A stretch of DNA of 49,437 bases, the filler included, from Jimgerdemannia flammicorona (Eukaryota), in NCBI GenBank assembly GCA_003990765.1. It is 2 parts of 2 records of this genome, joined end to end, with 100 filler letters (N's around TTAATTAATTAA, not from the genome) between each part and the next. Parts side by side here need not be neighbours in the genome. Positions count along the whole stretch, not along the records: positions 1 to 24,671 come from RBNJ01000944.1; 1 more part is not named here. One strand, given 5' to 3'. Position numbers and translations under genes: made by a program. This document shows, one piece after another, positions 7,992-20,885 of this stretch. Below the pieces are notes generated by a model. The model had not been told where the DNA came from and did no database searches. It saw only the letters and a list, made by a program, of their open reading frames with translations. Positions within the stretch are counted from its first letter, which is position 1; every line of letters starts with the position of its first letter.

Positions 7992-8165
7992 ATGGCGAGG
8001 ACAAAGCAAACGGCAAAGAAATCGACAGGCGGCCATGCCATGACGCAGCCTCTACAGTTACTGGAAACAAGGTCCTCCAGCCTGACCCCTGCTGGTGCCT
8101 CCGCCCATCCATCGAAATGAAGGAAGACCGGGTCCAAACCCCCACACTACCAAGGTGATGACAAG
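7992..8165 (+). pseudogene. H3-tail-mimic gene, copy 1, first coding exon (downstream exons not found)
   Basis: [57 protein letters not shown], then phase-0 donor AAG|GTATAT at 8166. An acceptor CAG lies just before the ATG. No histone-fold sequence follows. Confidence 0.8.
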
Positions 8166-8217
8166 GTATATATTCTCTCTAGAAAAAAAGCAGGGTTTTG
8201 ATCATCAAGGTCTGCAG

Positions 8218-8573
8218 AGTCCATTTGACACTGCTACATGACTATCTCGTCATCTTTAGTCAATCTGACAAAAGACATGGTGAGATTTCGCTCATATTGT
8301 GGACAGAGTGAAACTCTAGTCAATTTGACCAGTGTTTTCATATACTTCTCCGACACAATTGTGGTATGATGATTTGGATATCAGTGCCATTTTCATTATC
8401 CATCAGTCAATTTGACAGATGGCAATTTGTAGTTTGGGTTAAGGCGAATTCCAGTCAATTTGACAGGTATTCTTAACCCTCATACCATTAAACTGCAATA
8501 CATTGTCCTCAGTCAATTTGACAGACGACATTTTTGCGGTTGAGTTTGAGTCGAACTCCAGTCAATTTGACAG
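8218..8573. repeat. Array of ~7 palindromic cores AGTCAATTTGACAG with semi-variable spacers, inside the intron of H3-tail gene copy 1
   Basis: Cores at ~8218, 8258, 8318, 8405, 8453, 8511 and 8560. GTCAA-T-TTGAC is an inverted repeat, and alternate spacers are related (~106-bp higher-order unit). Confidence 0.85.
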
Positions 8574-8699
8574 GAGTTCATATACCTCATGCACGAAGGT
8601 GTCGGGTGAGGGAAATGATCAGAGGCACCCACTAAATAATTAGTAAAGCTTACCCAACAAAATGAGAGAAAGGGGCCAAAAGATAACATGTGCGCAAAT

Positions 8700-16530: not shown

Positions 16531-18170
16531 GTTCACTAATATATTAACCTTTTATTATTCTAATTATACAAGTTATAACTGAATCTGATATCGGAAGACT
16601 TCCAACATCCCTATGTTGTATGTGCGGCCATGGAGATCGAGTTTTTGAAACCTGCAATATTGTAGGATGCCTCAATATGATATGCATTGAGCACAACGAC
16701 AGCAACGAGAAATCACCACTCTGTGCTTCTGGAGTACCTGAAAATACATGGATATGTCCTATGCATAACGAGACTGATGTTAGTATTATAATGATCACTT
16801 TTAACCAGTTTATATTATACACATAAATATTATTCTAATTCAAATTATCTCTAATCAGGTTCAAATCAAATATGATGTTAATATCAAAGTGGACATTCAA
16901 TCATTGGCGTTTAGTGAAATGGCATGGAATGCTATCATGGGGGCTGTGAATAGTACATTTGGAGGATATTGCGTAAGTGTTTATATTTTGGATGGGAGAG
17001 GTTGTAATATAATTATTATTAATTTATTTATAAATATTAAATATCTTATCTCATTTATTATTTATTTATATAAAAGCAAGGTCAAATATCCGTCTATTCC
17101 CACATCTTTAATGGTGGCAATTCTCTTCAACAATGTATACAAGATAGCATTCCAAATGGCGATCTGATGCACACAAATGGCTAATTATAAAAACACATGT
17201 GAATGAAGTTGGAGATCTTTGGATAGTGATGGGAATCCATGGTCACTTGCCAACAGTACAGTGAGTAAACTATATAATTTATTCATATATATATATATAT
17301 CAAATTCTAGATCTAACTATTGTAATTAGTTTTTCAACGCTCTTTTTGAGCAGTCAGAATACAGCGATATCAATCTTGTTCTTCTTGTCTGTGGTACTGT
17401 AATTCAACCTAAATCCAATAACAAAGAACAGATATTGCAGGCGCACATCTCGATTATTGATATTATCAAAAGGTCAGTTTATTAACATATATCTCAATCG
17501 TTGATATCAAAGGTTATTTGTATTAAGTATTATATATTATATAATAATATCAACCATCTACAATTTAACAGAGTTACTACTGGACGAGCATTACTATTGA
17601 AGGTTATGAATTTCAGCACATCCCTCTTGTCGTATCGGTCACTGTAAGATTCAATAGCCTTATGGGACACCAGTTTGGGTTCTGGAGGGAGGACAGGGAA
17701 CATATGTGCATCGAAAGGTTCAGCCTTGCAGCAAACATCCTCGGGCACATAAACACCAGAACAAGTTTTGTATAGATATTGGAAAATATGAGGATAAAAA
17801 CTATGTTGTACGTATTTTCAGATGCAATGCACCTAGGGTAGCCATTTAGCTATTGAACTATCATTTTGCCAATAAATGTAAATTTGCCATTATTGTCTTG
17901 CTATTCTATTCTTGAGCATTATAAAATGACACTTCGAGGTGTTTGAAATACATGAATATTTCGATGACAATCTCCGGGGTAATTTGTTTATTGAATTCCG
18001 AAACCTTTACCCATATACATCTATCTCGGACGCTGCCCCTCAGATATTCACTAACACTCAAGGTGGGATTTTTCAAAATATATCTCTTAAAGCATTCCTG
18101 TTGTAATTATATGGTTTTATGAGTTTATCAAAACCGTAAAGCCGTTGTACGTGACTATAGTCGATTGGTA

Positions 18171-18285
18171 GATCTGCCTCGACGATTATACCTCCCTTTG
18201 AATTTTTGTTTTTATTTCATGAGGTTATATGTCGTGTCTGGCTATCTGCCTCGACGATTATATCTCCTTTTTATTTTTAATTTAT
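18171..18285. repeat. Two further units of the copy-2 array motif in the presumed last intron of copy 2
   Basis: ATCTGCCTCGACGATTATA...GGTTATATGTCGTGTCTGGCTATCTGCCTCGACGATTATA matches the 15640-16530 unit and is followed by acceptor TTTTGAAAG|GTG at ~18294. Confidence 0.85.
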
Positions 18286-18733
18286 TTTTGAAAGGTGACA
18301 CCTCGTTGTGGTGTTCACGGTGTTCACAGAATTTATAACGAAGATGTGGCTTGTTCAATATGTTCCACCAATTTTGATCCCACCAAAACAAAAACGCGTT
18401 CACCCCCCAGTAACACACCTATGTTGCCCTTGTCTTCGGACATTCCGAGTTGTTCACTTTATATGTTCACCCGAATCGCTTAGCAAGCTTTGCCAGTATC
18501 GTCGGACGAGCTCATTCACCTCACACGTTCACCTGAGTTGTTCTGTAAGTGTTGTCTGTGTTGTTGGAAGGGTTCATTCACCTTATAAACCGAATCGCTT
18601 TGCAAGCTCTACCAGTGTCGTCGGACGAGCTTGTTCAACTCACACTAGCTCATTTACTAGTACGTTCCCCCAGGTTGTTGAGTATCCATCACCAGTAACT
18701 GTCACAGGCTCTCTTGCCGGTACCGACTTCGGA

Positions 18734-20885
18734 ATGGCACGCACCAGACAAACCGCAAAGACGTCGACCTTTGGTCATGCAGCCTGAAAAAGCCTCAACC
18801 ATGTCCAGGAGTCCGATCACTGTACCTACCAACCCCCCTACAAGGACACCGAGGCGTTCTGCTACAGTCAAGACCTGGCCATCTAATCAGGTATATCATG
18901 GTGTGGGGTTTTGATACAGAGATAGATGAGAGGAAGCCATATGACTATTCTTGCATTTACCTGGGATTTTTGGGCGAATGTGTGCGTGATTGAAGTCATT
19001 TTCACCACATTATTATTTTTTTTGGTTGGCGAATGTCTCTATGACTGAAGCCATTTTCACCACATTATTTATTTTGGGTTGGCGAACGTCTCTGTGACTG
19101 AAGCCTTGGTGAATGTCTCGTGACTGAAGCCTCCAGACCTTCCTTTCTATCGTACCACATTATTATTTATTTCGGTTGGTGAACGTCTCTGTGACTGAAG
19201 CCATTTCATTTATTTCGGTTGACGAACGTCTCGTGACTGAAGCCATTTCATTTATTTCGGTTGACGAACGTCTCTGTGACTGAGCCTTAAGACCTTCCTT
19301 TTATCATATGAATGGCGAACGTCTCTGTAACTGAAGCCATTTTCACCACATATTATTATTTTGGGTTGGCGAACGTCTCTGTGACTGAAGCCTTAAGACC
19401 TTCCTTTTTATTATTTATTTTGGGTCGGTGAACGTCTCTGTGACTGAAACCTTACGACCTTTCTTTTTACTATTATTTATTTTGGGTCGATGAACGTCTC
19501 TGTGACTGAAACCATACGACCTTCCTTTTTATTATTATTTATTTGGGTTGGCGAACGTCTCTGTGACTGAAGCCTTGAAAGACCTTTCTTTTTATTATTA
19601 TTTATTTGGGGTCGGTGAACGTCTCTGTGACTGAAGCCTTAAGACCTTTCGTTTATTATTTATTTGGGGTCGGTGAACGTCTCTGTGACTGAAGCCTTAA
19701 GACCTTTCGTTTATTATTTATTTTGGGTCAGTGAATGTCTCTGTGACTGAAACCATACGACCTTCCTTTTTATTATTATTTATTTGGGTTGGCGAACGTC
19801 TCTGTGACAGAAGCCCCTTTTTATTATTTATTTTGGGTCGGTGAACGTCTCTGTGACTGAAACCTTACGACCTTCCTTTTTATTATTATTTATTTTGGGT
19901 CGGTGAATGTCTCTGTGACTGAAACCATATGACCTTCCTTTTTATTTATTTGGATTGGCGAACGTCTCTGTGACTGAAGCCTTGAGACCTTTCTTTTTAT
20001 TGTTATTATTTTGGGTCGGTGAACGTCTCTGTGACTGAAGCCTTAAGACCTTTCTTTTTATTATTATTTATTTTGGGTCGGTGAACGTCTCTGTGACTGA
20101 AACCTTACGACCTTCTCTCTGTGACTGAAGCCATTTCACTACATTATTATTTATTTGGGTTGGCGAACGTCTCTGTAACTGAAGCCTTAAGACCTTCCTT
20201 TATCATATGATAATCACAATTTTCTAACATGATGTTTCCAATTTATTTTATTTTTAAAAACAAATCAAATATCAGGTTTCTCGAACCATCGACATTGGGT
20301 GCGTTCAGGGCACCATGTACTGTCTGTGTGGGACTGGAGGCTGTGTTCTCGAAGGGTGCAGCATCAACTACTGTTCCAATGCCATTTGTGTTGAGAATGA
20401 TCGGAATCATCCATGCGCACCTTCTATCGCTGAAGGAGCATGGCGATGTCCAACTCATGATGGCAGAACATCGGTATGATGGAACTCGTCGAATCGATAT
20501 TCAGACTATTGAGCTTGAATCTTTTTCAGAATGGGGGATACTCCTCTCAGCAACCAGATTGATGTTTGCTTCATATGTGTATGTATTCAGATGAGTGTTA
20601 TGTATTTATTCTTGGTGCTAATATTGATTAGATTTAGCTAACATGCTATTTCTATCTATATAGCATGATCAGATCTTGTTTACAAACCACTCTTTCTCTA
20701 ATGGAGATATGCTTGAAACTGTATTGACCGGATGTGAGTTTTACTCGGTTTATTTCATTTTGGGTTTTGGGTATTATGCTCTAACCAAAGCTCTGTTTTT
20801 TAAATTACATCATGTGGCTGAGCTATCTGTGAAACCTTCTCATTGGTCCTCAGATGGCATTCCTGGCCAATGGCTATATTCATGA
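18734..20885 (+). pseudogene. H3-tail-mimic gene, copy 3: H3 tail exon, array-containing intron, PHD/ADD-like finger exon and downstream exons homologous to copy 2
   Basis: Exon 1 (18734-18890) reads MARTRQTAKTSTFGHAA*KSL.../...TRTPRRSATVKTWPSNQ|GTATAT with one frameshift. The intron runs 18891-20275. Exon 2 reads VSRTIDIGCVQGTMYCLCGTGGCVLEGCSINYCSNAICVENDRNHPCAPSIAEGAWRCPTH. RYDGTRRIDIQTIELESFSEWGILLSATRLMFASY and HDQILFTNHSFSNGDML align with copy 2. Confidence 0.75.
18975..20200. repeat. Intronic tandem array, about 22 units of mostly ~55-62 bp, core GG(C/T)GAACGTCTCTGTGACTGAA(G/A)CC
   Basis: Directly visible conserved core separated by T/A-rich linkers of variable length. Confidence 0.95.

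Follow-up and report, generated by a model that had tools for sequence, protein, structure and literature searches.

Probable tandem cluster of pseudogenes pairing a histone H3-like N-terminal tail with a PHD-like finger in Jimgerdemannia flammicorona

The closest described systems to the one reported here are non-histone proteins whose extreme N-terminus resembles the start of histone H3. In the accessible part of their paper, Chen et al. (2021, PMC8166343) describe H3 N-terminal mimicry proteins (H3TMs), among them VRK1, BCL11B, PCLAF and others, by the motif M-Z-R-X-K, in which Z permits removal of the methionine, and the accessible part of Nishiyama et al. (2020, PMC7060239) reports that the H3-like N-terminus of PAF15 (PCLAF) is recognised by UHRF1. 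We focus here on a locus of the fungus Jimgerdemannia flammicorona (assembly GCA_003990765.1) at which three first exons encode an H3-like tail, followed in two of the three gene copies by an exon encoding a Cys/His finger. The window, that is, the whole stretch of DNA analysed, is 49,437 nucleotides (nt) long including filler and joins parts of two records; its positions 1 to 24,671, within which all three copies lie, come from RBNJ01000944.1. The family is real and unusual, but its members in this window are clustered pseudogenes. In the literature searched, which lay outside subscription journals, we found neither an H3 tail fused to a PHD finger nor an H3 tail lacking the histone fold.

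The H3-like tail and its constraint

Three plus-strand exons opening with ATG encode H3-like N-termini, starting at 7992 (copy 1), 15499 (copy 2) and 18734 (copy 3), just as the initial annotation of this DNA had placed them. Six-frame translation of the window contains three instances of the pattern AR[TS][KR].TA[KR], against a mean of 0.0 in 200 mononucleotide shuffles, none of which produced a match. When exon 1 of copies 1 and 2 was searched against PDB sequences with phmmer, in-frame stops being written as X, histone H3 was retrieved with a best E-value of 0.001 for copy 1 (aligned residues 1-43) and 7.6e-4 for copy 2 (aligned residues 1-34), in both cases about 1e-3. The matches listed for these two exons are H3, H3 variants, chimeras or peptides, bar one, a designed repeat protein that heads the copy 2 list without a significant single stretch. 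The copy 1 tail is identical to H3 at 14 of residues 1-16, the copy 2 tail, of which 20 positions are readable within residues 1-21, agrees at 14 of them, and exon 1 of copy 3 begins MARTRQTAKTSTFGHA. A fourth tail is provided by P0007, a JGI record of 68 amino acids (aa), which is a tail-only fragment whose first 16 residues equal those of copy 1; it belongs to no Pfam family and has no histone fold after the tail. By sequence comparison, the tail is thus a true relative of the H3 tail and not a chance motif, and because the likeness spans about 16-21 residues, enough for a sequence search to retrieve H3, descent from an H3 gene in common is likely.

Numbered without the methionine, all four tails (copies 1-3 and P0007) differ from H3 in the same two places, with R8 changed to K and K14 to H or R. 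Since these changes are common to all four, the tails form a single lineage of their own rather than repeated or independent relics of H3. Position 4 is R in two of the four (copies 2 and 3) and position 9 is T in one. Residues A1, R2, T3, Q5, T6, A7, S10, T11, G13 and A15 are preserved, Q5 being a TAA stop in copy 2. In all four cases the tail is located at the predicted free N-terminus, in agreement with what had been proposed. Over the 16 tail codons of the three copies, synonymous divergence (pS) is 0.60-0.86 and nonsynonymous divergence (pN) 0.06-0.15, giving a pN/pS of 0.10-0.24; beyond these codons, exon 1 is barely alignable among the copies. The copies are therefore old and the peptide constrained, and the codon comparison shows long-term purifying selection on the tail, with the linker diverging freely.

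The tail is not followed by a histone fold. Among the plus-strand open reading frames (ORFs) of at least 30 aa that overlap 7900-22000, Pfam Histone (PF00125) gave 0 matches at E <= 0.01 in 150 of 154, the other four lying beyond 21598. Furthermore, none of seven histone-fold motifs occurs in the window in any frame, and the model of copy 2 reaches its stop at 17645-17647 without a fold. This part of the initial annotation therefore holds.

The finger exon and its resemblance to PHD fingers

In each copy the tail is continued by a basic linker, 50-69% of which is S, T, P, K or R, and exon 1 ends at a phase-0 AG|GTATAT donor (8165, 15627 and 18890; in copy 3 after one frameshift); donors and linkers alike are present as initially described. 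In copies 2 and 3 the order that follows is a minisatellite-filled intron and then the finger exon, with a phase-0 acceptor present in copy 3. The fingers (16572-16778 and 20276-20476) are 38% identical over 55 residues, and a profile of the finger family, run against 2048 six-frame ORFs of the window, finds only these two (E 3e-33 and 4e-36), the next best match having E = 1. Copy 1 has neither a finger nor later exons in the window. The proposed three-copy family thus stands as regards the tail, which is in all three copies, and the finger as next exon in copies 2 and 3, but does not extend to a finger in copy 1.

The family alignment has eight Cys/His positions and 11 invariant columns, among them five Cys and the W that precedes the final two ligands. 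One ligand Cys is Tyr in copy 3; otherwise the ligand pattern is kept in both copies. The finger had been described as PHD/ADD-like, and the two halves of that description fared differently. An ADD domain, as in DNMT3 and ATRX, consists of a GATA-like finger, then a PHD finger and then a C-terminal helix, in one module. Here there is no second finger: a single set of eight ligands occupies about 50 residues, with the linker directly before it, and the ADD assignment is dropped. The likeness to PHD fingers, on the other hand, is suggestive. The only PDB matches of the family finger profile are to the PHD finger of PHF21A (BHC80; 2puy and 2yql), at an E-value of 0.64, and a finger-only profile gives 1.1 and 1.4. 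In that alignment, seven of the eight metal-ligand positions coincide and the W-x-C-P motif is aligned. The family finger differs from the PHF21A PHD finger in that the fifth ligand is Cys rather than His, the last is His rather than Cys, the sixth lies four residues out of register and, in two of five sequences, the first pair is C-x-C rather than C-x2-C. The nearest named clusters in a protein language-model comparison are all PHD, for two family members, at 0.91 and 0.87. We thus regard the finger as PHD-like on sequence grounds and not as an established PHD member.

Gene copies, relatives and genomic setting

The three copies are best followed along the plus strand. Copy 1 is preceded by an element at 7832..7927, running from GTAAGT to a CAG just 5' of the ATG, which from its sequence is probably an intron in the 5' untranslated region; copy 2 has a counterpart at 15329..15423, probably of the same nature. 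This 96-nt element, 82% identical between the two, is the only DNA similarity among the copies outside repeats. Exon 1 of copy 1 (7992..8165), comprising the tail and linker, has an in-frame TGA at 8118-8120 and the donor AAG|GTATAT. Behind it, the former intron 1 retains a 107-nt tandem repeat (8394..8590) with no downstream exons after it. A near-palindromic motif, AGTCAATTTGACA, recurs about eight times in the 107-nt repeat 3' of the copy 1 exon (8240-8590, plus strand). The place expected for later exons of copy 1 is occupied by an ORF of the PDDEXK_9 family (PD-(D/E)XK nuclease, Pfam E 8e-13; 8700-9650, minus strand), which has normal CpG content.

Copy 2 is the most complete. Its exon 1 (15499..15627) has a TAA at codon 6 (15514-15516) and the donor GAAG|GTATAT; intron 1 contains a minisatellite of 13.4 copies of a 64-nt unit (15642..16526); and exon 2 (16572..16778), the Cys-rich PHD-like finger, follows a CAA|G acceptor, whereas copy 3 has CAG|G. 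Exon 3 (16859..16972; VQIKYDVNIKVDIQSLAFSE...GGYC) aligns with residues 75-122 of the database relative P0001 and residues 61-97 of P0004, both introduced below. Exon 4 (17077..17260, 184 nt) contains one extra base, which shifts the frame near 17180, and an in-frame TGA at 17204-17206. Exon 5 (17330..17472; FFNALFEQSEYSDINLVLLVCG...) has no relative in a word-index protein search and belongs to no Pfam family, and the last exon (17572..17647) ends with the TAA at 17645-17647. The resulting model, of about 280 residues, passes through GT-AG introns of 69-104 nt.

Upstream of copy 3 lies a 62-nt repeat (18465..18645) containing the motif TCGGAC(A/G)AGCTCAT..CACCT, which is also present 5' of copy 2. 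In exon 1 (18734..18890), the tail is interrupted by a one-base frameshift near 18782; the linker reads PEKAST...PSNQ and the donor is CAG|GTATAT. Intron 1 holds minisatellites with units of 53-62 nt (18973..20115), the main array being 12.9 copies at 19351-20114. The finger exon and the equivalent of copy 2 exon 3 form one block with no intron between them (20276..20582), in which a frameshift near 20470 separates the finger half from the exon-3-like half; in P0001 this stretch is a single frame. At 20664..20885 come remnants of exon 4 (HDQILFTNHSFSNGD..., ...SHWSSDGIPGQW), ending at a stop, whose homology to copy 2 is a visual judgement. Copies 2 and 3, P0001 and P0004 have in common the exon that follows the finger and the beginning of the one behind it, but copy 3 has no recognisable counterparts of the last two exons (5-6) of copy 2; the claim that further exons are mutually homologous thus applies to the first two behind the finger. 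In both copies intron 1 is of unusual length (944 nt in copy 2, 1385 nt in copy 3), being filled by about 13 units of a 62-64-nt minisatellite. The unit sequences differ between the copies, and what they have in common is the blocks TTATTTATTTT, GGGT and GTCTCTG/GTGTCTGG as well as their position, which suggests that the array predates the duplication. Between copies 2 and 3 there is an isolated fragment of the repeat unit of copy 2 (18172-18288), and no terminal inverted repeats frame any copy.

All three copies are pseudogenes. Copy 1 has the TGA and has lost everything after exon 1; copy 2 combines the TAA at codon 6, the CAA|G acceptor of intron 1, the extra base in exon 4 and the TGA at 17204-17206; copy 3 has the one-base shift in exon 1, a second shift after the finger and no last exons. 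As the lesions are substitutions, or insertions and deletions outside long homopolymers, assembly error is an unlikely cause. The initial annotation had named introns and C>T stops as the reason why ORF prediction largely misses the family. The TGA of copy 1 could be a CGA -> TGA change at a CpG; the TAA of copy 2 would not be in a CpG context, and the lesions of every copy include more than C>T stops.

The copy 3 finger was used as query in a full phmmer pass over 1.84 billion representative proteins (E <= 1e-3). Six matches were obtained, of which we accept three as relatives, all of them fragments of 82-125 aa: P0001 (125 aa, JGI/IMG), P0002 (82 aa, named Jimgerdemannia flammicorona, Endogonales) and P0004 (115 aa, SRC). 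The remaining three, P0003, P0005 and P0006, are repetitive proteins of 732-2286 aa with 5-10 matched stretches each; they were judged spurious and excluded from the family. P0002 and copy 3 have 79% identity along 43 residues; past the finger, P0002 has slipped out of frame, its sequence there corresponding to copy 3 translated in another frame, and it is therefore itself a broken copy. P0004 is uninterrupted across the site of the 80-nt intron 2 of copy 2 and derives from RNA or else from a copy that lacks the intron. In the word-index protein search, no match was obtained with the finger of copy 2. A metagenome scan with the finger alignment yielded 132 pattern matches, none of which was confirmed, and one with a degenerate DNA pattern for the tail yielded 0. 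The intact member joining tail to finger that had been envisaged thus did not emerge: the three copies here are pseudogenes and all database relatives are fragments. We conclude that the locus is probably a tandem cluster of three pseudogenised paralogues from a very narrow and probably Endogonales-specific gene family. Two motifs of copy 2, 'IVMGIHGH' and 'LVLLVCG', were considered as a caspase-like His/Cys pair and rejected, the first being in the wrong frame by comparison with copy 3.

The surrounding DNA is eukaryotic and repeat-rich. Besides the PDDEXK_9 ORF and remnants of DDE transposases, the window contains two Ty3/gypsy-type retrotransposons with protease, dUTPase, reverse transcriptase and integrase finger; a review, in its accessible part, gives Jimgerdemannia genomes as about 240 Mb, with more than 77% repeats in J. 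flammicorona. The CpG observed/expected ratio is 0.18 and 0.16 in the two retrotransposons (32000-38000 and 40000-49437), with an excess of TpG. The three copies have values of 0.59-0.84, and the PDDEXK ORF and the genes at the left end 0.95-0.99 (0.99 for the latter). Such a pattern is consistent with methylation and deamination of CpG sites that mainly affect the transposons and, to an intermediate degree, the gene copies, and the initial description of methylated DNA dense in transposable elements is borne out to that extent, namely by the element density and by the ratios of 0.16-0.18 in the long terminal repeat elements. Several neighbours were noted in passing. Exons of a gene for a Nop14-like nucleolar protein (352-1189, minus strand; Pfam Nop14, E 7e-10), an ordinary housekeeping gene, edge the repeat-rich stretch. 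A C-rich 63-nt tandem repeat (3.3 copies, 10944-11178) and a GAAGAT hexamer array (about 21 copies, 11357-11481), the latter yielding long acidic or Ser-rich ORFs, adjoin a DDE_3-like transposase remnant at 11820-12164. In the Ty3/gypsy-type element at about 32-38 kb, the dUTPase domain (33755-34420, plus strand; Pfam E 2e-14) lies between protease and reverse transcriptase.

Possible functions and relation to known systems

We propose that these copies are the dead remains of a narrow family of tail-plus-finger proteins whose tail was gripped by a reader of the H3 N-terminus, a reading to which we assign a probability of about 0.55. The ancestral product would have been a small nuclear protein of about 280 residues, laid out as an H3-like tail, a basic S/T/P-rich linker, one cross-braced Cys-rich PHD-like finger and about 170 residues of further sequence without a histone fold, with the tail and finger exons presumably spliced into one message. 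Removal of the methionine would free an N-terminus that imitates unmodified H3, and the freed tail could then be bound by modules that recognise H3 at its free N-terminus. The simplest candidate for such a reader would be the protein's own finger, whose binding could lead to self-inhibition or to head-to-tail pairing, in competition with nucleosomal H3. Positions 4, 9 and 14 of H3 are modifiable lysines. According to the accessible part of Chen et al. (PMC8166343), the contacts of PHD fingers include the freed N-terminus and arginine 2, and the invariant tail residues A1, R2, T3, Q5, T6 and A7 include the contacts named there. Since the contact residues are invariant and positions 4, 9 and 14 variable, the tail may be a mimic that escapes or alters modification.

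A number of observations weigh against this proposal. The PDB E-values for the PHF21A PHD finger (0.6-1.4) are not significant, several per cent of shuffled proteins attain language-model values of 0.87-0.91 by chance alone, and ten neighbours from the same family, as found in that comparison, are obtained by a third of shuffled proteins. Pfam PHD (PF00628) is unmatched by any of the five fingers, at cut-offs of E <= 1 for those of the window and E <= 10 for P0001, P0002 and P0004, together with a sweep of the ORFs. AlphaFold2, run on five-sequence alignments, gave models too poor for use, with a mean predicted local distance difference test score (pLDDT) of 35.2 for P0001 and 40.6 for the copy 3 finger. 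The selection estimate is based on 16 codons only, and K4 is R in two of the four tails, so that reading of methyl-lysine 4 cannot be general. Finally, no intact full-length member was found among the 1.84 billion representatives, only the three finger fragments, and the family may be wholly dead.

Other explanations draw on the same observations. That these are ordinary or variant H3 genes with overlooked histone-fold exons is suggested by the first 16-21 residues, which are H3-like; with copy 2 reaching its stop without a fold, no Histone match in 150 of the 154 ORFs, none of the seven fold motifs in the window, and P0007 likewise without a fold, this possibility is refuted for the window. 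A more serious objection is that the chimera was a dead end, in which a fragment of H3 was duplicated beside an unrelated finger gene, copied locally and never useful. All three copies are broken, the relatives are few and fragmentary, and the region is full of retrotransposons, in a genome that is more than 77% repetitive according to the accessible part of the review, all of which debris would explain. It would not be expected, however, to conserve the peptide while the synonymous sites of the tail approach saturation (pN/pS 0.10-0.24), nor to maintain over this divergence the splice phases and, in fingers only 38% identical, the Cys/His ligand pattern, the Cys -> Tyr change in copy 3 aside. 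We therefore consider it unlikely that the copies are mere debris.

An equally doubtful possibility is that the H3-derived tail was kept as a handle for transport or chaperones, borrowed to reach the nucleus, rather than as a ligand for a reader. The H3 tail acts as a nuclear import signal for karyopherins, the tail and linker of this family are basic and S/T/P-rich, and conservation extends past residues 1-7, to S10, T11, G13, A15 and P16, beyond the usual need of a PHD finger. On the other hand, the strict A1-R2-T3 and the exact N-terminal placement in four of four tails are better accounted for if a free N-terminus is recognised than if the tail is a generic basic import signal, and K14, which is important for karyopherin binding, is replaced in all four. 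Even less probable, in our judgement, is that a transposon carried the tail-finger unit as a passenger and multiplied it, any function then being of use to the element, for example in evading host silencing. The setting dense in transposable elements, the minisatellites of intron 1 and the stray piece of copy 2 repeat at 18172-18288 would suit a passenger, but no copy is framed by terminal inverted repeats, the copies are too diverged for recent transposition, the units contain no transposase or reverse transcriptase, and the cluster is local and on one strand, as would result from tandem gene duplication.

Starting from the proposal of a reader-gripped tail, a bolder scenario can be drawn, which we offer tentatively and consider unlikely. 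The Endogonales would have captured an H3 tail exon and made of it a tail-plus-reader family, with the contact residues frozen, lysines 4, 9 and 14 replaced and a PHD-like finger tethered; live members would be modification-proof decoys or self-gated chromatin binders that titrate proteins reading or writing on the H3 N-terminus in its unmodified state, possibly as part of a conflict between the host and its very abundant transposons. Any decoy, anti-silencing or enzymatic function, as put forward in the initial annotation, is purely conjectural. The locus itself consists of dead genes, and its value is in the family it points to rather than in the window. If a live member exists, the family would be a natural experiment on the tail residues that readers require, since residues 1-3, 5-7, 10-11, 13 and 15 are kept and 4, 9 and 14 free to change. 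Such a protein would also be a candidate chromatin factor, self-regulated or acting as a decoy, from a fungal lineage that is rich in transposons and has received little study. What appears to have happened is that a stretch of about 20 residues, of likely H3 descent, was moved onto a non-histone protein and kept there by selection, beside a finger resembling the readers of that very tail.

How the family compares with known systems can be stated for each in turn. Its tails match the N-terminal residues of histone H3 itself, but R8K and K14H/R are found in all four, there is no histone fold and the downstream exon, by the predicted splicing, is a finger. With the H3TMs, as the accessible part of PMC8166343 defines them, the family has in common that the extreme N-terminus of a non-histone protein imitates the start of H3 after methionine removal, such that PHD fingers and other readers of the H3 tail can grip it. 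The H3TM motif is present in copy 1 and P0007 (M-A-R-T-K), whereas copies 2 and 3 have M-A-R-T-R. H3TMs in that definition have only a five-residue pattern in common with H3, compared with about 16-21 residues here, and they are described there as proteins without a reader of their own. The parallel with PAF15 and UHRF1, in the accessible part of that work, is likewise one of a free H3-like N-terminus on a non-histone protein, recognised by a binder of the H3 tail in the regulation of chromatin. That system is vertebrate, however, its mimic and reader are separate proteins and PAF15 has no finger of its own, whereas in the fungal family the tail stands beside a reader-like finger in the same predicted protein.

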